Below, one piece after another: positions 10,258 to 19,381 of a DNA stretch of 64,000 nt. Below the pieces are notes generated by a model that was not told the DNA's origin, made no database searches, and was given only the letters and a program-made list of their open reading frames with translations. The position numbers and the translations under genes are program-made. Each line of letters opens with the position of its first letter. Position 1 is the first letter of the stretch. The DNA is from Candidatus Altimarinota bacterium (GTDB taxonomy: Bacteria > Patescibacteriota > Gracilibacteria > UBA1369), in assembly GCA_963677745.1 (NCBI GenBank), contig OY782391.1, forward strand, positions 1,088,001 through 1,152,000, in the 5' to 3' direction.

Positions 10258-10301
10258 CACGAGCCGAAGGTGTGTTAATGTAAGCCCTAAACTATCTAGT
10301 T

Positions 10302-11087
10302 ATGAAATTCACAGACAAAGTCGTGGTTGTCACCGGAGCCGGAACTGATCCGGATCAGGAAGTAATAGGTTTTGGACATCAGATAGCCAATGATTTGTAC
10401 TATCAGGGAGCTACCGTCGCCATCATCGGCACCAGCATTAGCCGGCTGCGCGATGCCACTTTCAGAATAACCGGAAGTCACAATCCCAGTGAAGAATTTT
10501 CCTATCACTCCTGTGACGTCGCCGATGAAGAGCTGGTGGAACAGGTCTTTGATTATATCAGGGAAACTCACGGAGCGGTCTATGGACTGGTCAACAATGC
10601 CGCGGTGAATATTATTAATCCGCTGGCAGAGCTGGAATTATCGGAAATGCGCCGGGTGCTGGACGTCAATCTGCTCGGACCGATGCTTTGCGCCAAACAT
10701 GCCATCAGGCAGATGCTGGAGACGGGCAGAGGCAGTATCGTCAATGTCAGCTCCATCGCTGCCAAGAAAAGAAGTACCTGGGCTGAAATGCCGGCTTATA
10801 ATACCTCTAAAAGAGGCCTGGAAGCTGTCAGTGACAGCATTTCCCGGGATTATGGACTATTGGGGATCAGATCGAATGTGGTGCGGCCCGGCTTTGCCAG
10901 AACACCTTTTACCAGCCTCCATTTTGCCGAAAATCCGGCTCTGGAACATTCCCTGTCCGCCCGCCAGCCGTTGGGTGGACTGGTGACACCTGAACAAATA
11001 GCCGGTGGAGTCCTTTATTTTCTTGATCCGGCCTGCCCGGACAATGGCGAAATCCTGGAAATAAGTAATGGGCACATTGCAGGTTGA
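10302..11087 (+). CDS. short-chain dehydrogenase/reductase (SDR)
   Basis: VVVTGAG...GFG, LVNNAA, IVNVSS, YNTSK (YxxxK), IRSNVVRPG. Confidence 0.9.
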   Translation: MKFTDKVVVVTGAGTDPDQEVIGFGHQIANDLYYQGATVAIIGTSISRLRDATFRITGSHNPSEEFSYHSCDVADEELVEQVFDYIRETHGAVYGLVNNAAVNIINPLAELELSEMRRVLDVNLLGPMLCAKHAIRQMLETGRGSIVNVSSIAAKKRSTWAEMPAYNTSKRGLEAVSDSISRDYGLLGIRSNVVRPGFARTPFTSLHFAENPALEHSLSARQPLGGLVTPEQIAGGVLYFLDPACPDNGEILEISNGHIAG

Positions 11088-11111
11088 CAAAAGGCAAAAT
11101 AAAGTTATAAT
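11084..11111 (+). promoter_or_regulatory. sigma70-like promoter
   Basis: TTGACA-16 nt-TATAAT; implies the downstream ORF starts at ATG 11137. Confidence 0.6.
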
Positions 11112-11136
11112 CATCTCTACAATTAATTTCAATTTT

Positions 11137-11610
11137 ATGAGAATGGTACCAAGAGAAACTGAAGGTGTACTAAATGTTACGCCCTCGGGCGAAGGGTCTG
11201 CTGATGATTTAGCTGGTCAATTGTCCGGTGAACAACAAGATTTCAATCATAGATTGGATGGTGTTTTGACTACTGAAAAAATTCTGGACAGAGGTGAAAT
11301 TGTCGGTCAGTACCCGAAAGCCAAAATTATGATTCGCGTTATTGGTGCTGCTTTGGGATTGGGCGAGCGATACCTGGTTATCTGGCTGGGACATTATTTG
11401 GAGAAACATGGCGATCTGCCGACGGCCCTCAGAAAACTGATCAGGTTGATCTGGCATGATGGTAACGCTACAGCCGCCCAGCTTAAAAGTTTGGTAGGAG
11501 TATTGGTTGATCTTGGTTTGATTGAAGAATGGGAAAAAGAGGTCCTGGACAGGATTCTTACCGGTTTCGAAGACCTGGAAAAGAAACGATTACTCGGCCC
11601 GCAGTTTTAA
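11137..11610 (+). CDS. hypothetical protein
   Basis: ORF downstream of a consensus promoter; no motif recognised. Confidence 0.55.
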   Translation: MRMVPRETEGVLNVTPSGEGSADDLAGQLSGEQQDFNHRLDGVLTTEKILDRGEIVGQYPKAKIMIRVIGAALGLGERYLVIWLGHYLEKHGDLPTALRKLIRLIWHDGNATAAQLKSLVGVLVDLGLIEEWEKEVLDRILTGFEDLEKKRLLGPQF

Positions 11611-11631
11611 GGAAAATTTTAAAAAAACTTT

Positions 11632-12801
11632 ATGTCATTAGAAAATCGATCCGGTGAGGAGCATCTTATTTCCCAACCGCAAAACAGATCATTCATGGTT
11701 GAAATGGCCAAGGCCATTGCTTTGGCCCTGCCTCTGGCCGCCACTGCCTGCGGAGGATCGGTGGAAACTACCGATGAAGATGAGCCTGTAGACGCTGCTC
11801 CGATAGCGGAAACATGCCAGAATATTATTCTCAGACAAGATCCCGATCATCCAATTGCACAAATGCTCCTGCGGGGTGATCACCCTGACGCCATCGGCTG
11901 CTGGCAGATTTCCAATCCCTGTCCCAAACCGCTGCAGGTAAACAGCGCAAAAATATCCAAAAACGGAACGGCCAAACTGGATGCTTTTCAAAATTATAAA
12001 ATTTCCAAAATTTCGGATCAGCCGGTTTTAAACTCCTTATCCCAGACCATTATTTTCCCGACCGGAAACTGGGAAATTCCACCTAAATCCGCTGTGGATT
12101 TCTGCCTGGAGGCCGACGTGTCACCGGTCACGGGATGCGAGATTTCCGCCAAATTCCAGATCAATGCCGCCACCGATCTGAACATCACCTATGACGGCCA
12201 GCCTGTCACTGCGGACAATTATTTAAATGATTTCCCGGTTCTGGGAGGTGAAGACGGCATCAACTGCCTGAATCTATTTGACGCCCAAACCAGTTCCATT
12301 CCGTTACAAACCGAAGCTACGATCGCCAGCATCATTACCTGTCTGTATGTGGACGCTTCCAATGCCGGCAGCAAGGACATCATTCTTAAAAACTTTACGG
12401 CAGCGGTGGAATTTGAGGGGGCGGACGGAGTAAAAGGCGGTTTGTTGGATACCACAGATCCCGCCAATCCGGTGGCCAATGTCGGGCCGATGCAGATTAT
12501 CCACTCTACCAAAGACTCCAGCCTGTGGGTAGGCACTCCGGAGTTTTCCATCGACGGTGACGACCAGCATCTGGAATACAGCCACACTTTTCCCAATATC
12601 CACCTTGCCCCTTTAACCACACACGGAATAGACCTGGTGGTCGACATTCTGGACGTCCAGGAACTGGTCGGCAGCAAAATCCGCTGTGTTTTCAGGGCCA
12701 ACCCGCAAGTCACCGATCCTAGCGGCAAGCCGCTTAATGAGGCGACAGTCGGACCTGATCAGGACATCGTTGGCAACTGGATCACGCTGACCGCTAAATA
12801 A
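11632..12801 (+). CDS. putative lipoprotein, beta-rich and Cys-containing
   Basis: Lipobox-like ATAC after a ~20-aa leader; beta-strand-rich body. Confidence 0.6.
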   Translation: MSLENRSGEEHLISQPQNRSFMVEMAKAIALALPLAATACGGSVETTDEDEPVDAAPIAETCQNIILRQDPDHPIAQMLLRGDHPDAIGCWQISNPCPKPLQVNSAKISKNGTAKLDAFQNYKISKISDQPVLNSLSQTIIFPTGNWEIPPKSAVDFCLEADVSPVTGCEISAKFQINAATDLNITYDGQPVTADNYLNDFPVLGGEDGINCLNLFDAQTSSIPLQTEATIASIITCLYVDASNAGSKDIILKNFTAAVEFEGADGVKGGLLDTTDPANPVANVGPMQIIHSTKDSSLWVGTPEFSIDGDDQHLEYSHTFPNIHLAPLTTHGIDLVVDILDVQELVGSKIRCVFRANPQVTDPSGKPLNEATVGPDQDIVGNWITLTAK

Positions 12802-12810
12802 TCAATAAAC

Positions 12811-13284
12811 ATGTCTGCAGAACATTACGGACAACCGGTAGATCTGCGTGCCCATCACCTGTACAGCCTGCAGCAGCAGTACTCTTTCCCAATATCCACA
12901 AAAGCTTTGAAGGCTATCAAGCTGGCCGTCCTGGGTTATCAGGATCCTGAATTTCCGGAACATTTAATGAATGTCGTCGATGATATTATTAACGGAACAA
13001 CGCAAAAAGTAAGAATTGTTGACCATCATGATGCGATTTGTGAAAAATGCTCGCAAAAAAGGGAGCACCATTGTCGGGTTGCCGGCAGAAATTATTCTTC
13101 TGCTTTTCTGTCTCTGCTGGATCAGGCAATTGCTGAAAATTCCGAATTGGAAATAGGGGCCACTTATACATCGAAAGAGATCGTCGGAAGAATAAAATCT
13201 GTTAGAAAAGGTCTTATCCGCACAGCAATTCAAATACCGGCACTTCTGGAAATTGCACGGTTAATGGAAATTTCCAAGAAATAA
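12811..13284 (+). CDS. DUF1284-like protein
   Basis: LRAHHL...GY...F...DAICEKC...C pattern. Confidence 0.65.
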   Translation: MSAEHYGQPVDLRAHHLYSLQQQYSFPISTKALKAIKLAVLGYQDPEFPEHLMNVVDDIINGTTQKVRIVDHHDAICEKCSQKREHHCRVAGRNYSSAFLSLLDQAIAENSELEIGATYTSKEIVGRIKSVRKGLIRTAIQIPALLEIARLMEISKK

Positions 13285-13397
13285 TATTCGGTAGCCGGGG
13301 CGTGGAGGAAGTTCAAAATATTGTCTGGGAAAAGTCATGTACTTTTATAATTCTGGGAACTAAATTAATATTGTCGGGAATTCTTGTTTAATTGCCT

Positions 13398-13937
13398 ATG
13401 GAAATCCTGGATATATTGGATGAAAACGGTGGTTTGACGGGAGAAAGGAGATACCGCGAGGAAGTGCATCAGAAGGGATTATGGCATCGGGTTGTGCATA
13501 TCTGGATTTTAAATTCCCGAGGCGAGGTCTTGATTCAAAAGAGGGCAGCCCGCAAATTAACCTATCCAAATTTGTGGGTAATGTCGTGTGAAGGACATCT
13601 TTCGGCAGGCGACACTGCAAATCAGGCTGTAATAAAGGAATTGCAGGAAGAGCTGGGCTTACATGTCGAGGCCTCAGAGTTACAGTTTTTAATGGGTTAT
13701 AAGCGGCAATCCGTTACCAATAACGGTACCTATTTTGGCAATCATTTCATTGATGTTTTTCTGGTCCGGCGTGATTTAAATATTGCCGATTTAAAACTTC
13801 AGGAAGATGAGGTTGCTGAAGTAAAGTGGATAAAAATTGATGAAATGGCAGATCGGGTCAGAGCCAAAGACCCGTCTTTCAAAGATTATCCCGGACAATA
13901 TCCGGAGATCTTCGATTTACTAAAACATCACAAATAA
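13398..13937 (+). CDS. NUDIX hydrolase (IDI-like subfamily)
   Basis: HQKGLWHRVVHIW, QKRA, GHLSAGD...KELQEELG Nudix box. Confidence 0.9.
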   Translation: MEILDILDENGGLTGERRYREEVHQKGLWHRVVHIWILNSRGEVLIQKRAARKLTYPNLWVMSCEGHLSAGDTANQAVIKELQEELGLHVEASELQFLMGYKRQSVTNNGTYFGNHFIDVFLVRRDLNIADLKLQEDEVAEVKWIKIDEMADRVRAKDPSFKDYPGQYPEIFDLLKHHK

Positions 13938-13965
13938 GCCAAAAACTTTGGAGCTCCATCGTAGA
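13935..13965 (+). repeat. 31-bp direct repeat, copy 1
   Basis: taagccaaaaactttggagctccatcgtaga; 30/31 identical to 15860-15890. Confidence 0.9.
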
Positions 13966-14054
13966 GGAGGTTCACACTGGTTTAATCGCGGACAGGCACT
14001 TGCAATATGAATAGAGCGTGTTATAATACCGTCTTAAGCCATGGAATTGCGTTT

Positions 14055-15029
14055 ATGGAAAGGGAAAACGATTCATCTGAACAATTGGAATTATTAAATA
14101 AGGAGGCAGAAATTGAAAAGCTGAAAATGGAGGGTTTTCACAGGGCAGCCCTGTATCTTGAAAACCCTGAATTGGTTGACGGACTGACACTAAATGACAT
14201 ACTCGTTTTGAATGACCACCTGAAGCGGGGCCGCCATGACCGGGAAAAATCTATAAACGGTCGCTTGATAAAACCTGAACAGATCCCCTCTATCACTGTT
14301 GCAACCATAAACCGGATCAGGGAAGTCCTTCCCAATCCTGATCAGTCGCTTTCTTTGGAAGATGCTTTTTTAATTGAAGATATCTATCGTCGGTCCTGTT
14401 TCAGTGGACAAGAAAGATTAGTGTACGCCAGTATTGCCTGCGGTCTGTTTCATGCCGCTTATTTTTTTTCGCCATTTCCTGCTGACAGAGAACCATATTT
14501 TGTCTATGCAACGCCGGCCGCGCTCATTCGGGAAGTGCTGTCCAAAGAACAGGAAAATCCCGAAAATTTTGCCTGGGCAGAAACTATCATGAAAAAAATT
14601 ATTAATTACATAAATACCGAATTTGCCCGGGAGTATATCTATTACAGCATCCTTTACCCTAGGAGTGATGCCTGGTATCAGACTAAAAATTTAAATAAGC
14701 AGGAGAAGCAGCGCCTGGCTAAATTTGCAGGAATTAATTTAAAGGGATATAGCGGTGCAATTCATGCTTCCGGAGGTAGACAGGGACGTTATCCCGGTAG
14801 GGCATTCTGTTCAAGCCTGGAACAGGCCCTGGATCCTTTTATCCGGCCGATTATGGGATCACATATGGAAGGTCTTAAGGATTTTCATCTTCTGGCCAGG
14901 ATGAAACAAACTCCCTATGCCGAAAAATTAGCTGAAACGTTCAGAGCTCTGGCCAGGGACAATCCCCCGCATAATACTGATATTTTGCTGCTCAAAGAGC
15001 TGAATCTTGGGGCCCAGGATTTCAAATAA
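14055..15029 (+). CDS. hypothetical protein
   Basis: Long ORF, probable ATG at 14055; no motif recognised. Confidence 0.6.
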   Translation: MERENDSSEQLELLNKEAEIEKLKMEGFHRAALYLENPELVDGLTLNDILVLNDHLKRGRHDREKSINGRLIKPEQIPSITVATINRIREVLPNPDQSLSLEDAFLIEDIYRRSCFSGQERLVYASIACGLFHAAYFFSPFPADREPYFVYATPAALIREVLSKEQENPENFAWAETIMKKIINYINTEFAREYIYYSILYPRSDAWYQTKNLNKQEKQRLAKFAGINLKGYSGAIHASGGRQGRYPGRAFCSSLEQALDPFIRPIMGSHMEGLKDFHLLARMKQTPYAEKLAETFRALARDNPPHNTDILLLKELNLGAQDFK

Positions 15030-15075
15030 TTTGGCATTCTGATATAATTAACTGATAACTAATTATTAACGTCAC

Positions 15076-15843
15076 ATGCTTAACAGTTCAGACCATTATG
15101 GTTCTGCAGAAGAGGAAGGAAGAGTATCTCTTCGGGATTTTTTGACCTACGAAAATCCGAAAATTGCGGAGTACCGGGAGTTGATGCGGCAGAACCAACA
15201 AGAAGGGTCTAGGATGGAGGACGGTTTTGCCATGCAATGGTCCGAAATTCTTTATAATCCGGGAAGTAATGATTCACAGGTAAATTATAATCCCTCCCGC
15301 TGGGAAGTGGCCCGCGACTATTTTAAAGAAAAACTATCAGGAGGCGTGCTTATTGACGTAGGAGGAAATACGGGCAATCAGATTGACACAATGCGTGCTT
15401 TCGCCAAAAAATTTGGTGCCCGCACCTATATTGATGTTGATCTGATGAATGGCGGCCCCCCGGATCCCTTTACAGCTGTCAGGGCAAACGAAAGCCAGTA
15501 TTTGGAATTACCACCCGAAGAACGCATTGGCGCAATGGATGAATACCTGGTTACCGCTGATATGCTCGATTTTGTATCCCGCCTGCCGGACAACTCCTGT
15601 AACTTTGCTGAAAATGGCATTGATCAATATATCTTGGGGACTGGCAGAAATGGTACGGAGTACGGCAAAGCCCTTTTCCGGGAGATGATCCGCGCGACCA
15701 GGGTTGGCGGCATTATCTTCGGTATTGAATCCGATATGTGGGGCAATAGTGATCCCAGACTGAAGGACATGACCGAATCATTGGGTTTCAGGAAAGGAGG
15801 ATGGGGAAACCGCCATCAAATCTATGAGAAGATCAAAGAGTGA
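15076..15843 (+). CDS. hypothetical protein, possible SAM-binding Rossmann fold
   Basis: VLIDVGG...YIDVD...ADMLDF...RATRVGG resemble class I methyltransferase motifs. Confidence 0.5.
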   Translation: MLNSSDHYGSAEEEGRVSLRDFLTYENPKIAEYRELMRQNQQEGSRMEDGFAMQWSEILYNPGSNDSQVNYNPSRWEVARDYFKEKLSGGVLIDVGGNTGNQIDTMRAFAKKFGARTYIDVDLMNGGPPDPFTAVRANESQYLELPPEERIGAMDEYLVTADMLDFVSRLPDNSCNFAENGIDQYILGTGRNGTEYGKALFREMIRATRVGGIIFGIESDMWGNSDPRLKDMTESLGFRKGGWGNRHQIYEKIKE

Positions 15844-15859
15844 TTAAAAGAGGCTTAAG

Positions 15860-15890
15860 TAAGCCAAAAACCTTGGAGCTCCATCGTAGA
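15860..15890 (+). repeat. 31-bp direct repeat, copy 2
   Basis: taagccaaaaaccttggagctccatcgtaga. Confidence 0.9.
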
Positions 15891-15917
15891 AAATGTCCAC
15901 ACTGTTTTTCTTTTGTC

Positions 15918-16697
15918 CTATGAATTTAAATAGTCCAGATCTTCCTTGGTTAGCAGGTCCTTTTCCAGTATTTTTGCGTACTCGAATCCAAAATTGAAAA
16001 TTGAACGCTGCGTGTCGGCGATGTTGATGTTTTCGATAATCACTCCTACGGCATCCTGATGTGACATAATTGCCACCTTGTCGTCATAAATATCGATTTC
16101 GTTTTTGAAAGGGAACTTTTCTTTCGGGATCAGGTGAACTTCACGCAGTTCGGCTTTTTCAGTCTTTTTAAATTCCAGAGCGCGCTTATCATAGCCCAAA
16201 ATAGCGTTGACCCAGACTTTGCGTTCCACCTTTTTCCTGATATAGGTGGGGTAATAATCGGCTAAAAGCGTTGTCGCAGCCAGGTCCGCATTTGCCCAGC
16301 CGCAGATAGGGGTCTTGGTGGTTAATGTATCTTCCATGATTTTGATCAATCCTTCCTTTCCTTCAAAAAGGCGCATCTGCGGTACGCTAAAAAATCGTTG
16401 GTGCAGACTCAATAGCTCCGGCAAAGATTTTTCCAGTGATTTGTATTTTGTAAACTGGTCTTCCACTAACATACGCGGATCCAGTGCCTGGAAGTATCTC
16501 TGTCCTTTTTTGTCTATATGACTCACCAGACCTTTCGCTGCGAGAGTTTCCAGAATCACATAAGTTGTCGGCCGTTTGACTCCCGTCTTACGCGAAATTG
16601 TACTGGGAAGGGCTTCTTTTAATTCGAGGAGCGAGAGATAAACTTTCGCCTCCTTTTCACTTAAGCCGTTTTGTTCCAGAATGGTTACCAGATCCAT
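15918..16697 (-). CDS. TrmB-family transcriptional regulator
   Basis: GLSEKEAKVYLSLLE...ISRKTGVKRPTTYVILETLAAKGLV wHTH; FEGKEG; C-terminal IYDDKVAI; ATG at 16697. Confidence 0.9.
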   Translation of the reverse strand: MDLVTILEQNGLSEKEAKVYLSLLELKEALPSTISRKTGVKRPTTYVILETLAAKGLVSHIDKKGQRYFQALDPRMLVEDQFTKYKSLEKSLPELLSLHQRFFSVPQMRLFEGKEGLIKIMEDTLTTKTPICGWANADLAATTLLADYYPTYIRKKVERKVWVNAILGYDKRALEFKKTEKAELREVHLIPKEKFPFKNEIDIYDDKVAIMSHQDAVGVIIENINIADTQRSIFNFGFEYAKILEKDLLTKEDLDYLNS

Positions 16698-16870
16698 ACT
16701 GTCAATAATTATGACAACAACTAATATATTAATTATAAACAAAGAAAACATTGAAAACAAGCCCAAAAAAGACAATTAAGTTGTTTGCAAAGTTGACAGA
16801 CCGTCAAGAAAGTTGACTAACACAATAGAAGTGATATCTTGTACTCTTCAATATATTAAAAAAATGTCAA

Positions 16871-17647
16871 ATGAGTACGCAAAAGATTGCAATACTGGCG
16901 GGAAATCCCAGGGTCGGACTGGATAAAAACGGCGGTCTGTTGATTGACCCTCAGTTGGAGGCTTTTGAGGAAGCCCTGAAAATTGCCGCTGATTGCCGCG
17001 ATCAGATTGCCAAGATAGTTGTACTTTTCGATCACCGGAGGGGCTTTAAAAAGAGATTCGTGGATGAAACACTGGAATTTGCTTCCAAAAAGCAAAAGAA
17101 GAAAGCTTTTGACCACTTGAAGATGTCACATTTATTGCCGGAGATCAGAAATGTTTATGAAGGACTTGCCCAAAAATACGGAGTAGCGCTCGATCAGATC
17201 AATGTTTTGAGTGAAGACATGTGCCGTCTGGAAATCTTTAAACGGATGGAGGGAAATCAGGAGTTGAAAAAATTTGCCACTAATAAACGTGAGCAGGTAT
17301 GCACCGGCGAGAAAAGCTGTTCTGTAGGAGGTAGTTGTGGAAGCTCTGACTGGGAAGAAGATGTGGATGATCAGGAAGTTCCGGAATTACGTCCGGAGCG
17401 GGTCAGCTGTCCCGGTATTGCGGCTGCAGCTATATCCTATCTGGCCAAGGGGCTCAATCAAGACGACAAAATCATCACCTGCTGGCAGTACGATCAGAAC
17501 AGGGTCAACAGCCGGAATGTGATAGTAGGTAGCCAGATAGCCAGGAATTTGCTGGGCGTGGAAAATCCGATTGAGGTTCGATATGTCCGTTGGCCGGTCG
17601 CGGCAGATGGTACTGTTGCAAGCGAAACGATTGTCAAAAATATCTAA
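16871..17647 (+). CDS. hypothetical protein, possible HUP/Rossmann-like enzyme
   Basis: IAILAGN...IVVLFDH...LSEDMCR...SCPGIAA; Cys-rich insert; divergent from the TrmB gene. Confidence 0.55.
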   Translation: MSTQKIAILAGNPRVGLDKNGGLLIDPQLEAFEEALKIAADCRDQIAKIVVLFDHRRGFKKRFVDETLEFASKKQKKKAFDHLKMSHLLPEIRNVYEGLAQKYGVALDQINVLSEDMCRLEIFKRMEGNQELKKFATNKREQVCTGEKSCSVGGSCGSSDWEEDVDDQEVPELRPERVSCPGIAAAAISYLAKGLNQDDKIITCWQYDQNRVNSRNVIVGSQIARNLLGVENPIEVRYVRWPVAADGTVASETIVKNI

Positions 17648-17666
17648 TAATTATCATCAATCTACT

Positions 17667-18800
17667 ATGAGTATCAATAAACTAGAGGAATCAGCAAAAA
17701 ATCCACTCGAACAATTGGTTAATTTCCACTCTCTCAAATTACTGCCGGAAAAATTATCAGAACGTCAGAGGCAATTTGCCCACCTGATTGATCCGCGTTT
17801 CTTTGAGGGAAATCTGAATCCCTCCCGCGAAGGGAAATCAAAAAAAGATTACAGCTATATCACGCCTATTGAGCTCGAAAAAGATTTGTTTTATCTCCAC
17901 CCGCTGATGGATCCCTCCGTACTGGAACAGGGGAATGTGCGGAGGTTTCCCTCGGGTGTGAATGAAAAGTATATCGCGGAAAAATATTTTGAAGACCAAT
18001 GGGTGTCGGAGGGCAACAATCTTCTTTCCCGGAAACTGGAATCTTATATCCTCGCAAATCTGGCTGAACTGGAAAGAAAAGACCGAATCAAACTGGTGGA
18101 TATCGGCCCCTGTGGCGGAGCAATTACCACGCTTTTTGCCTTAAAGGCATTGGAAAAATACGGTCTTCTGGAGAAAGTGGAAGTGTCACTTCTGGATATT
18201 GTTCCAAATGTCCTGGAGGCCACTTTACTGGGAAAATATCATGTTCCCAATGAATTATTGGAGGAGTATGGCCTGGGATATGCCGGAAAGGATGGGGAGA
18301 ATTATAAAAGTTTTCTGTCGGGCGGAGTACTGCACGGGGTGAAGGAATGGTATGAATCGGGTGACAACCCTTTGAGTGAAATGGCTGAAGCTGCCTTGAA
18401 AAAGAGCGGGGAGAATAAAGGAAGTTCAACCGGCAGTCCCGATGTTCACTATTACCGGGGTGATGGGGAAACCTTGCCTCTGGATATCCGGGATTATGAC
18501 ATCGTTTTGTCCGCCTATACCCATCATCACATGAACTTGTACGGCAGAAAATCGCTTTGTTTGCAAATGGAACAGGCGGCTTGCGATGGAGGATTTATTG
18601 GCATAGCAGATTTCTTTGTTCCAAGTTATGAGGACTATCTCGCCTGGTACAAACCGCATTTTGAAAAATACGGGGATGCACCGCCGGTTGAATGTCCATT
18701 GGTGGATGGGCAGACACTGGCATCATGGTTTGAACAGGTAGAAATTTCTGAAATTTCGAATATCGAAAAGAGTTTTGTGTTTGGCGGAGTAAAGAAATAG
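17667..18800 (+). CDS. class I SAM-dependent methyltransferase
   Basis: LVDIGPCGG, SLLDI, GDGETLP, YDIVLSAYTHHH, GGFIGIADF. Confidence 0.8.
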   Translation: MSINKLEESAKNPLEQLVNFHSLKLLPEKLSERQRQFAHLIDPRFFEGNLNPSREGKSKKDYSYITPIELEKDLFYLHPLMDPSVLEQGNVRRFPSGVNEKYIAEKYFEDQWVSEGNNLLSRKLESYILANLAELERKDRIKLVDIGPCGGAITTLFALKALEKYGLLEKVEVSLLDIVPNVLEATLLGKYHVPNELLEEYGLGYAGKDGENYKSFLSGGVLHGVKEWYESGDNPLSEMAEAALKKSGENKGSSTGSPDVHYYRGDGETLPLDIRDYDIVLSAYTHHHMNLYGRKSLCLQMEQAACDGGFIGIADFFVPSYEDYLAWYKPHFEKYGDAPPVECPLVDGQTLASWFEQVEISEISNIEKSFVFGGVKK

Positions 18801-18860
18801 TCTAAATCTAAGCTAAGGGATGTTCACATGAGGTGGGCTAGTTTATAACAAAACCAACAG

Positions 18861-18931
18861 TGGTGGAACCGCGGGGAGTCGAACCCCGATTCAACAATTG
18901 TCAAAACCGTGAATGGACCACTCCCGGTCCC
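18861..18931 (-). ncRNA. non-canonical 71-nt tRNA-like RNA with alanine identity (G3:U70) and encoded CCA
   Basis: GGGACCG-GGAGTGGTCCATTC-ACGGT-TTTGACA-ATTGT-TGAAT-CGGGG-TTCGACT-CCCCG-CGGTTCC-ACCA: fully paired acceptor and T stems, shortened D region. Confidence 0.7.
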
Positions 18932-19067
18932 ACGCGCTATTGGCGATTTATATAATATTTATTGGCCATTAACTAACCATAAATAAAAGTTAAAATATTC
19001 CTGAGATATTTGAAATAAACAGAAAATTTGGTATATTAACTATGTCAAAACTGTGAATGACCTTCCC

Positions 19068-19096
19068 AAAAGAGCCCGCGCATGCGCGGGCTCTTT
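19068..19096. terminator. intrinsic terminator-like hairpin downstream of tRNA-Gly
   Basis: aaagagcccgcg-catg-cgcgggctcttt inverted repeat. Confidence 0.7.
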
Positions 19097-19115
19097 GTTT
19101 GCTGTTATAAAATCT

Positions 19116-19307
19116 TGAAGCGGGTTAGGGGAATAAACTGCGCTGCGCTCGTTTCGCGGACTGCATTCGCTCGCATCTGAAAATAAATTTTCAATGACTC
19201 GCTTCATATGTCTGCACGAACCCACGCCCGCTTCGCGGGATCGGGTTCTCTTCCCCTTGCCCAGGCACAAATAAAAATATCACGCTCAAAAGAGCCCGAT
19301 ATTTTTA
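19116..19307. repeat. tRNA-Gly-derived palindromic element (duplicated tRNA 3' end plus nested hairpins)
   Basis: 19116-19134 is 18/19 identical to 19308-19326; an inverted partial copy gggttctcttcccct lies near 19243; internal hairpins cccgcttcgcggg and ataaaaatatc...gatatttttat. Confidence 0.7.
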
Positions 19308-19381
19308 TGGAGCGGGTTAGGGGAATCGAACCCCTGTCTTCAGCTTGGAAAGCTGTCATAATACCATTATACTAAACCCGC
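19308..19381 (-). tRNA. tRNA-Gly(TCC)
   Basis: GCGGGTT...CAGC-TTTCCAA-GCTG...AGGGGTTCGATTCCCCT-AACCCGC-TCCA cloverleaf. Confidence 0.95.

Follow-up and report, generated by a model that had tools for sequence, protein, structure and literature searches.

The alanyl-tRNA synthetase (AlaRS) is known to charge tRNA-Ala and the transfer-messenger RNA (tmRNA), and it accepts acceptor minihelices that carry a G3:U70 pair. Another tRNA-shaped RNA, mascRNA, is cut from a longer precursor as a by-product of a vertebrate nuclear long non-coding RNA, has no requirement for G3:U70 and is not aminoacylated. Complementary RNA pairs are known from type I toxin-antitoxin systems, such as hok/Sok and Ibs/Sib, and from RNA-RNA systems of type VIII, such as SdsR/RyeA and CreT/CreA; the Sib/Ibs paralogues are privately specific. 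The C4 RNAs of phages P1 and P7 and the CI RNA of P4 are antisense immunity RNAs processed by RNase P. Here, we compare with these systems a 71-nt gene located in a 64,000-nt stretch of DNA, hereafter the window, from Candidatus Altimarinota bacterium (assembly GCA_963677745.1, contig OY782391.1, positions 1,088,001 to 1,152,000), a member of the Patescibacteria or Candidate Phyla Radiation (CPR). An original prediction, made from the letters of the window, had described it as a tRNA-like gene with alanine acceptor identity, a shrunken D arm and tmRNA-like motifs. Our analysis indicates that it very probably belongs to a family of tRNA-shaped RNAs of ~70-73 nt with alanine identity and a hypervariable arm, nearly every copy of which sits in a two-gene module with an antisense small RNA (sRNA). 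That prediction had overlooked the decisive feature, the cognate antisense sRNA gene beside each copy.

The coordinates (18861-18931) and length originally given are correct, with the gene on the minus strand, and all the parts named at the time can be read in the sequence: the acceptor stem GGGACCG/CGGTTCC, which begins with G1-C72, G2-C71 and G3:U70, the discriminator A and an encoded CCA, the T arm, a 14-nt spacer, the loop TTTGACA and a pyrimidine, C, at loop position '37'. The 14 nt between the acceptor and the ACGGT strand are better parsed as a 10-nt mini D hairpin followed by 4 bp that lengthen the 'anticodon' stem, which then totals 9 bp with one bulge and leaves zero linker nucleotides at the four-way junction. 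The shrunken D arm takes the form of a 3-bp mini hairpin. The tmRNA-like lack of a D stem does not hold, as the stem is present and covaries among relatives (3/3 pairs changed on both sides), with GG in the D loop of every family member. The features of the gene, including its score with R1, a covariance model built from seven sequences, are as follows.

18931..18861, minus strand: tRNA-like RNA gene, 71 nt (ARAGORN, sequence, R1 at 92.7 bits, covariation)
18931-18925, minus strand: acceptor 5' strand, GGGACCG
18924-18915, minus strand: mini D hairpin of 3 bp with loop GTGG (10 nt, GGA-GTGG-TCC)
18914-18889, minus strand: extended bulged arm of 9 bp with the 7-nt loop TTTGACA (26 nt, ATTC-ACGGT-[TTTGACA]-ATTGT-(T)-GAAT)
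18888-18872, minus strand: T arm, CGGGG-TTCGACT-CCCCG
18871-18865, minus strand: acceptor 3' strand, CGGTTCC
18864-18861, minus strand: discriminator A and encoded CCA (ACCA)
18937..18943, minus strand: 5' leader strand CCAATAG of a leader/trailer helix, read from the sequence and probably part of the precursor
18854..18860, minus strand: 3' trailer strand CTGTTGG, read from the sequence, pairing with the leader with one G:U pair
18947..18952, minus strand: weak, putative -10 box TATAAA of the tRNA-like RNA, 3 nt upstream of the leader helix

The leader/trailer helix, of 7-9 bp, flanks the tRNA-like RNA in all the module arrangements described below, and its two strands change together (judged by eye, uncounted), as in the pairs AGCTGGTCG/CGACCAGCT and GATCGG/CCGATC of other copies. 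TATAAT-like boxes lie 0-8 nt ahead of this helix in other copies.

The fold is conserved through compensatory change. Among seven close relatives, 97.6% of the cells are paired and 13 of the 24 pairs have changed on both sides. A larger alignment of 44 hits contains 42 distinct sequences, in which 94.7% of the cells are paired, compared with 68.1% in shuffles and 41-59% when the partners were slid by 1-3 columns, and changes on both sides occur in 20/24 pairs. RNAalifold, run on a structure-blind MAFFT alignment of 41 sequences, recovered the same four helices with 20/23 pairs compensated. These homologues and their covariation confirm, at the level of sequence comparison, the earlier view that the 71-nt feature is a real, conserved and maintained gene, tRNA-like but non-canonical, and not a product of random decay.

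The alanine acceptor identity that had been proposed is invariant or nearly so across the family. The pairs G1-C72, G2-C71 and G3:U70 are found in 42/42 distinct sequences, in contrast to the free covariation of acceptor pairs 4-7; 43 of the 44 aligned hits have A as discriminator, and 35 have the 3' tail ACCA, with an encoded CCA. Of the 47 tRNA calls made by ARAGORN in the source genome, only the three tRNA-Ala and the 71-nt gene carry G3:U70. The loop of the long arm follows a U-turn-type consensus, N-U-Y-R-N-C-A: position 33 is U in 38/42 sequences, position 34 a pyrimidine in all 42, position 35 a purine in all 42 (G in 38, A in 4), position 36 any base, position 37 C in 37/42 and a pyrimidine in 40/42, and position 38 A in 42/42. 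In the model alignment, 25/42 sequences have loops of 8 nt. The anticodon-equivalent triplet varies among TGA (10), CGT (10), TGT (7), TGC (5), TGG (3), CGA (3), TAC (3) and TAT (1). An invariant alanine identity combined with a variable triplet is the pattern expected of a non-decoding RNA that AlaRS must recognize. Given the G3:U70 minihelix rule and the presence of an AlaRS gene, we infer that the tRNA-like RNA would be charged with alanine. Genes for RNase P RNA, AlaRS and RNase III are all present in the source genome. The AlaRS gene (C1:1071653-1073020) lies in a frame of only 656 aa, and its Pfam match to tRNA-synt_2c spans positions 1-436 of the 552-position profile; the enzyme may be shortened, which may bear on which RNAs it can charge.

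The arm of the 71-nt gene is repeated directly, with 15/16 matches, 127 nt upstream on the same strand (-127), so that its complement lies on the opposite strand, within a predicted sRNA gene.

19043..19101, plus strand: predicted cognate antisense sRNA, ~58 nt, divergent from the tRNA-like gene (arm repeat, RNAduplex, terminator scan)
~19043-19067, plus strand: 5' complementary part of the sRNA, predicted to pair with the loop, the arm 5' strand and the D hairpin (RNA positions ~8-33)
19069-19096, plus strand: intrinsic terminator hairpin of 12 bp followed by a T-rich tail (scan tool)
19010..19037, plus strand: sigma-70-type sRNA promoter TTGAAA-16-TATATT with a TG-extended -10 (scan tool, 10/12 matches)

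The -10 box ends 5-6 nt ahead of the complementary segment, and this segment co-varies with the arm in all 5 cassettes of the genus. Pairing is predicted to be private to each locus. RNAduplex gives -38.9 kcal/mol for the cognate pair in the window, -10.5 to -13.7 kcal/mol for this sRNA with the other three tRNA-like RNAs of the genome, and -13.0 to -19.3 kcal/mol for the window's tRNA-like RNA with the other three sRNAs. Across the source genome, the four cognate duplexes range from -38.9 to -43.0 kcal/mol vs -10.5 to -28.0 kcal/mol for the twelve non-cognate ones.

The same relationship is found in most of the family. A partner matching at least 13/16 positions of the member's own 16-nt 'arm 5' strand + loop' was detected within ±250 nt in 49 of 58 distinct members, a threshold reached in 30 of 3306 non-cognate comparisons. 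Of the nine members that fail this strict test, five have a partner by duplex energy, the cognate beating all ten non-cognate controls, two have cut flanks and two have none; the total with a partner is thus 54/58 when the duplex test is added. The constant unit, at the RNA level, consists of a -10 box, a gap of 3-10 nt, complements of the loop, the 5' strand and the D hairpin in that order, and then a terminator, making sRNA genes of ~55-80 nt. A -10 box lies 3-10 nt before the complement in 41/49 pairs vs 17/245 random control positions at the same loci, a terminator follows in 48/49 vs 41/245, and both are present in 40/49 vs 6/245; the T run begins a median of 38 nt past the complement.

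The placement of the partner differs among modules. It lies upstream on the opposite strand at the window locus (type-1), 21-23 nt downstream on the same strand in the other three copies of the genome (type-2), 35-76 nt downstream on the same strand with its own complete promoter in a third arrangement, and downstream on the opposite strand, with a two-way terminator in common, in a fourth; in L112 it is upstream on the same strand. Overall, 26 pairs have the partner on the strand of the tRNA-like gene and 23 on the other one, and the DNA repeat is inverted in 26 and direct in 23, yet the orientation always yields an antisense RNA. That four gene arrangements preserve it argues that the relation between the two genes holds at the RNA level. 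Transitions between arm and partner point the same way: of 55, 42 remain G:U-compatible in the predicted RNA:RNA duplex and 13 do not, an asymmetry expected for pairing RNAs and not for DNA repeats, although its binomial p of ~1e-4 is overstated because the pairs are related. The copies named A and B below are conserved cassettes of ~270 nt, in which the reverse complement of the own arm lies ~22 nt past the 3' end. The type-2 sRNA -35 box, TTGCNT, falls inside the acceptor 3' strand of the tRNA-like gene, with TATAAT 17 nt further on; in copy A, the scan tool called both this promoter (TTGCCT-17-TATAAT) and the terminator. Pairing of the type-2 sRNA is predicted to reach acceptor positions 5-9 as well.

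The homologue search in CPR genomes that had been proposed to check the original prediction revealed a wide but patchy distribution. In the source genome (1.336 Mb, one contig), a search with the tmRNA model returned the true ssrA and two ~72-nt hits with the same architecture and G3:U70, and R1 brings the number of copies to four: the 71-nt feature, A (C1:320712-320783), B (321832-321903) and C (300202-300272). ARAGORN misses the three paralogues. Of the 36 genomes in the same family, 19 have R1 hits of 69-75 nt that score at least 46 bits, and several hits per genome are common. At the level of the order, 73 of 151 genomes, from 12 of 19 families, have hits at E<=1e-6; no fewer than five of the 73 are counted only through a 77-nt hit, which is probably a canonical tRNA. 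In a class-level sample (E<=1e-7), hits occurred in 6/15 genomes of the order and in 2/135 genomes from other orders, both of the latter being 76 nt long. A phylum-level sample added clear members in two further families (G252 and G205), the tRNA-like family being sporadic in distant CPR families.

We also scanned contigs representing one genome per species with a degenerate pattern, which gave at least 120 stretches, 80 of which were inspected. Among those inspected, the 14 hits that are 70-73 nt long and score 48 bits or more all come from metagenome-assembled genomes (MAGs) of CPR/Patescibacteria, with record titles naming Candidatus Peribacteria, Peregrinibacteria, Gracilibacteria, Saccharibacteria or 'Patescibacteria group'. 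Pattern hits outside the CPR, among the stretches inspected, are 3' ends of tmRNA genes (the 67-nt actinobacterial class and acidobacterial ssrA), canonical tRNA-Ala, or the single, unpaired candidates L092, L094, L078 and L145, for which no partner was shown. The 67-nt hits in Actinomycetota MAGs (L077, L080, L081, L084, L102, L106, L110, L129, L131, L135, L139, L150 and L156) have a common ...GGACGGGGGTTCGATTCCCCCCAGCTCCACCA and an unpaired 'acceptor', and they are most likely the 3' end of the bacteria's own ssrA, outside the tRNA-like family. As far as we looked, the family appears to be a CPR feature within the genomes surveyed, in keeping with the CPR context guessed in the original prediction; R1 was trained on one lineage, so its absence elsewhere is weak evidence.

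A phage origin was considered and rejected. A pattern scan of IMG/VR viral contigs gave 92 stretches, of which 80 were examined, and R1 scored 21 hits; 20 of these have no partner, most being compact tRNA-Ala(UGC), and only L244 is a true module. The compact genes occur on viral contigs from 7 kb to 435 kb (L213, L217/L236, L218, L226, L234, L249, L252, L254, L277 and others), measure 70-74 nt and have shortened D arms, short or absent variable regions and loops of the CTTGCAA or TTTGCAA type. In contrast to the tRNA-like family, they keep the UGC anticodon and a purine at position 37.

No Rfam family matches the gene at its gathering threshold. A scan of the window at Rfam gathering thresholds returned only tRNA-Gly and tRNA-Phe and nothing at the 71-nt site, and Rfam 15 holds no family for the tRNA-like RNA. 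A local E-value scan gave two sub-threshold matches, mascRNA-menRNA at 41.9 bits (gathering 42.5) and tmRNA at 29.7 bits (gathering 47), the rest being chance hits to the terminator. The mt-tmRNA model was absent from the local listing at E<=10, in which two lower-scoring overlapping matches of the same clan were suppressed without being named, and the C4, CI and ColE1 families had no match up to E = 10 in the same scan. ARAGORN takes 18861-18931 (-) for a 71-nt 'tRNA-Ser(tga)' and places the anticodon at position 29. We rejected this assignment, since the gene has no variable region and falls below the RF00005 gathering score, and a real 90-nt tRNA-Ser(tga) is present at C1:869953-870042. Any other canonical bacterial tRNA was rejected on account of C37 instead of a purine, a 3-bp instead of a 4-bp D stem and the lack of the 8, 9 and 26 linkers. 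With three tRNA-Ala, the canonical tRNA-Ser(tga), a full ssrA and smpB in the genome, the 71-nt gene would be redundant.

Compared with tRNA-Ala, including the compact phage tRNA-Ala(UGC) of 70-74 nt, the tRNA-like RNA has the same acceptor identity set, a T arm and a cloverleaf, but it has TGA in place of an NGC anticodon, lacks the 8/9, 26 and variable-loop linkers and carries a 3-bp D stem, a bulged 9-bp arm and a pyrimidine at 37. The tRNA-like domain of tmRNA (RF00023) resembles it in G1-C72, G2-C71, G3:U70, A73 and CCA and in its GGGGTTCGAnTCCCC-like T arm; both are presumably charged by AlaRS and neither is a decoder. The tRNA-like RNA differs from tmRNA, however, in having no mRNA-like domain or pseudoknots, in its covarying D hairpin and long arm, and in being multi-copy with a private antisense partner in a genome with a separate, true ssrA. 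With mascRNA/MEN-beta (RF01684) it has in common a zero-linker cloverleaf in which a mini D hairpin of 3 bp and a T arm of the GGGGTTC type flank a variable middle arm; mascRNA has no antisense partner, and the resemblance is architectural without implying homology. The C4/CI immunity RNAs and ColE1 RNA I/RNA II are likewise small structured RNAs whose loops pair with a nearby complementary transcript, and the C4/CI RNAs need tRNA-processing enzymes and owe their specificity to a few loop and stem bases. These RNAs lack the AlaRS identity set and the T arm, and the only module found here on a viral contig is L244. Type I and type VIII toxin-antitoxin systems resemble the module in combining a stable RNA gene with an adjacent, strongly promoted antisense sRNA, in pairing that starts at a U-turn loop, and in having paralogues with private specificity, variable regions and decayed copies; adjacent complementary RNAs, the sRNA with its own -10 box and terminator, are what we find in 40/49 pairs. 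In contrast to those systems, the module has no conserved toxin open reading frame (ORF) and no PADLOC or Pfam component, and its predicted effector is an aminoacylatable tRNA mimic.

Our tentative reading, plausible though short of probable, is by analogy with the type I and type VIII systems: an RNA-only effector/antidote module, similar to addiction or immunity modules. The modules are multi-copy, orthogonal, patchy in distribution, located beside variable genes and sometimes decayed, which is what suggests RNA-only addiction or immunity. The tRNA-like RNA would be cut out of a precursor paired through its leader and trailer and would probably mature like a tRNA, through RNase P and with a CCA end. 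Charging with alanine would then yield a stable effector, one that interacts with the machinery of tRNA or of translation. Pairing of the sRNA would start at the U-turn loop and zip for ~25 bp through the arm 5' strand and the D hairpin, and the duplex would unfold both, leaving the mimic inactivated, sequestered or exposed to RNase III. On this view, harm or activity would come from the stable tRNA mimic, and the strongly promoted sRNA would serve as its antidote. In type-2 modules, the sRNA promoter lies downstream of the mimic, so read-through together with the internal promoter would keep the sRNA always at least as abundant. It is also possible, with a good deal of doubt, that these are a new class of RNA-only conflict modules, in which an alanine-accepting mimic interferes with translation, tRNA-handling enzymes or a phage process, the hypervariable U-turn arm serves as an address label by which the modules of one cell stay orthogonal, the private sRNA is the antidote, and the modules spread patchily among CPR.

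Several observations weigh against reading the module in this way. A toxin-antitoxin model does not require alanine identity, and an orphan 'toxin' fits it poorly: L069 and L092 (2/58), along with the additional hits L203 and L205, have no detectable partner. The arms of orthologous modules differ at 6/16 positions, barely more than the flanking DNA (~80% identity), so that diversifying selection is not shown and compensatory drift or gene conversion would also fit. Folding of the single sequence gives a minimum free energy structure that is not a cloverleaf (z = -1.26, with 24 of 200 shuffles equally stable); the single sequence does not favour the cloverleaf, and the case rests on comparison with relatives, whose sequences, genomes and copies are related, so that the counts are not independent and the statistics overstate independence. 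The promoter scan tool made no call for the tRNA-like RNA's own promoter. Sequencing runs labelled as RNA contain only 5% of the query words; five runs contain at least half of them, all at contig level and of unstated kind.

Pairing between the two RNAs is symmetric, and sequence alone cannot tell which of them acts. The roles could therefore be reversed, with the tRNA-like RNA as a stable, RNase P-processed antisense or decoy regulator or antidote, in the manner of the C4 and CI RNAs, and the adjacent small transcript as the controlled RNA, which might be an sRNA with targets elsewhere or itself toxic or regulatory. A tRNA shape would lend processing and stability to an antisense arm displayed on a U-turn loop, and the leader/trailer helices suggest deliberate excision. 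We consider this unlikely, since it leaves unexplained a full AlaRS identity set that is invariant in 42/42 sequences and goes beyond the shape of an RNase P substrate; moreover, no arm has a third copy in the source genome (<=2 mismatches in 18 nt) that could be a further target, and the sRNAs end in strong terminators without a consistent downstream gene. The identity set would be accounted for if the RNA were an antisense-regulated alanine donor for a non-ribosomal reaction, such as that of the FemX/MurM-type transferases of peptidoglycan branches, which accept Ala-tRNA via the acceptor arm. The encoded CCA (35/44), together with a pyrimidine at 37 and a variable triplet that argue against decoding, fits such a role; there are two FemAB-family genes in the source genome, and copies in two relatives (G015:C4 and G122:C50) lie within ~500 nt of a FemAB gene. 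FemAB genes are, however, present in 144/151 genomes of the order vs 73/151 for the RNA, which gives no discriminating co-occurrence. Two adjacencies among ~150 copies are close to chance (~1 by our estimate), and the copies in the source genome are at least 65 kb from its FemAB genes. The MprF-type domain LPG_synthase_C was not found. A donor would need no orthogonal copies, hypervariable arms or private antisense RNAs, and on these grounds we regard it as rather improbable.

The remaining explanations fare worse. The original prediction had allowed that the RNA might decode UCA, and an alanine-charged tRNA that misreads NCN codons or blocks the A site, with its arm masked by the sRNA, could be the toxic activity of the effector/antidote module proposed above. 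The 5-bp inner stem and 7-nt loop with U33 (38/42) and A38 (42/42) would suit it. The triplet's middle base, G in 38/42, would direct it to Ser, Pro, Thr or Ala codons, and the 9-bp arm, having no stacked D stem, might span about the length of a D stem plus anticodon stem. Reading of UCA is nevertheless unlikely and decoding in general very doubtful, because position 37 is a pyrimidine in 40/42 sequences, unlike in decoding tRNAs, the triplet varies among copies, the model alignment gives 25/42 loops a length of 8 nt, a U-turn loop for antisense recognition accounts equally well for U33 and R35, and the phage tRNA-Ala of similar length keep UGC and purine 37, 20 of the 21 scored viral-contig hits being partnerless. 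A minimal or two-piece tmRNA-like rescue RNA, acting through its acceptor/T-arm and SmpB with the sRNA duplex in the place of tmRNA helix P2, appears highly improbable. The tmRNA model does match locally (E = 2.6e-10), the identity set is common to tmRNA, and several members carry the GGGGATG.../...CATCTCCACCA acceptor of the source genome's ssrA. That match, well below gathering, comes from the acceptor and T arm only, and canonical tRNA-Ala reach 22-23 bits with the same model; the 26-nt arm offers no tag reading frame, and a D stem is present. The 'GG-N-UUCGAC-like' motif (ACGGUUUUGAC) on which the tmRNA likeness partly rested lies inside the hypervariable arm and is not conserved, and the genome, as checked, has a full ssrA (105.7 bits, with tag ORF), the only gene in which ARAGORN finds a tag peptide, and smpB. 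A core rescue function would also fit poorly with multiple orthogonal copies in a genome and with the lack of the RNA in half of the order.

Least credible of all is a DNA-level element, whether a site of recombination or attachment or the decaying fragment of a tRNA or ssrA, with the repeats as by-products of integration. It is true that tRNA-Gly(UCC) lies 376 nt upstream of the gene, that 15 nt of this tRNA's 3' end recur as a direct repeat beside the gene, that gene content adjacent to the module varies between congeners, and that two copies in G058 have their own 3' end repeated behind them. However, the 3' half is no copy of any tRNA-Ala or ssrA, as an attachment-site remnant would be, and a 96-nt query matches only itself in the genome. 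Covariation extends over the full length, direct and inverted repeats alike always form a promoter-complement-terminator unit, and the G:U asymmetry (42 vs 13) is strand-specific. The nearest tyrosine recombinase genes, three in all, are at 80 kb, 239 kb and 880 kb, with no recombinase gene near the modules. An apparent partial copy in the congener G002 also bears on this: the dead module at L026:7511-7600 (minus) joins a partner segment to the tRNA-like 3' half precisely at the loop, has lost its 5' half together with the two promoters, and carries mutations in the T arm and terminator. This fusion is a deletion between direct repeats and not an att remnant.

Around the modules, gene content differs between congeners. 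In G002, an array below the syntenic tRNA-Gly comprises two full type-1 cassettes and a dead copy, and a third type-1 cassette lies 1 kb below tRNA-Gly(GCC). In the source genome, an 8.5-kb block (10263-18840) separates the tRNA-like gene from a 548-aa gene that abuts the module in G002; it encodes ORFs of 261, 180 and 389 aa, DUF1284, NUDIX, ORFs of 340 and 255 aa, a TrmB-type regulator and ORFs of 258 and 409 aa, and no flanking repeat was found at its far end. No recurrent neighbour protein emerged from a Pfam search of 18 flanking ORFs in the source genome and G002, which matched unrelated families or none; TrmB, NUDIX, methyltransferases and, in a membrane protein encoded between copies A and B, NERD are examples. 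This membrane protein (C1:320928-321665, nuclease-related domain at E = 2.8e-16) has an N-terminus similar to that of another membrane-protein ORF at C1:303036-303737, 2.7 kb from copy C. Within the modules themselves, we saw no conserved ORF, and an ATG occurs at the leader only in copies A and B.

Other repeats were noted in the vicinity of the modules. The 15-nt direct repeat of the tRNA-Gly(UCC) 3' end lies at 19119-19133 and 19311-19325 (minus), with ~177 nt between, and in G002 a matching segment of ~165 nt is present twice (L026:13376-13540 and 15270-15434), on either side of a 2-kb insert that carries two paralogous ORFs (174 and 253 aa). The arrangement resembles an island at tRNA-Gly, or the scar of one, and is distinct from the tRNA-like module. 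Directly downstream of tRNA-Gly lies an element of ~150 nt (window ~19140-19290, minus; L026:15270-15440; L140:4370-4620) that contains GGGGAAGAGAACCCG and nested GC-rich hairpins; it is ~90% conserved between congeners, is partly present in a Peregrinibacteria-labelled MAG and has no Rfam match. In L203 and L205 (G058:C8), the own T-arm 3' half, the acceptor 3' strand and ACCA are repeated directly ~60 nt past the terminator, which may be an attachment-type duplication or may mark a different module subtype.

Such RNAs, and their pairing with a private antisense partner, were not described in the open full-text literature, a search that left subscription journals and supplements outside its range, nor in passages of the Peribacteria genome paper (PMC4736985). 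A third widespread class with the same AlaRS identity, neither decoder nor rescue RNA, would come as a surprise to tRNA and RNA biologists, and its genes are liable to be mis-annotated as odd tRNAs, as with the tRNA-Ser call made here by ARAGORN. The module is a compact system of ~250 nt with no protein gene and with programmable specificity. If its role in addiction or defence is true, it would extend toxin-antitoxin biology to an aminoacylatable RNA, and it would offer a handle on genome plasticity in CPR, whose small genomes are poor in recognizable mobile-element genes.

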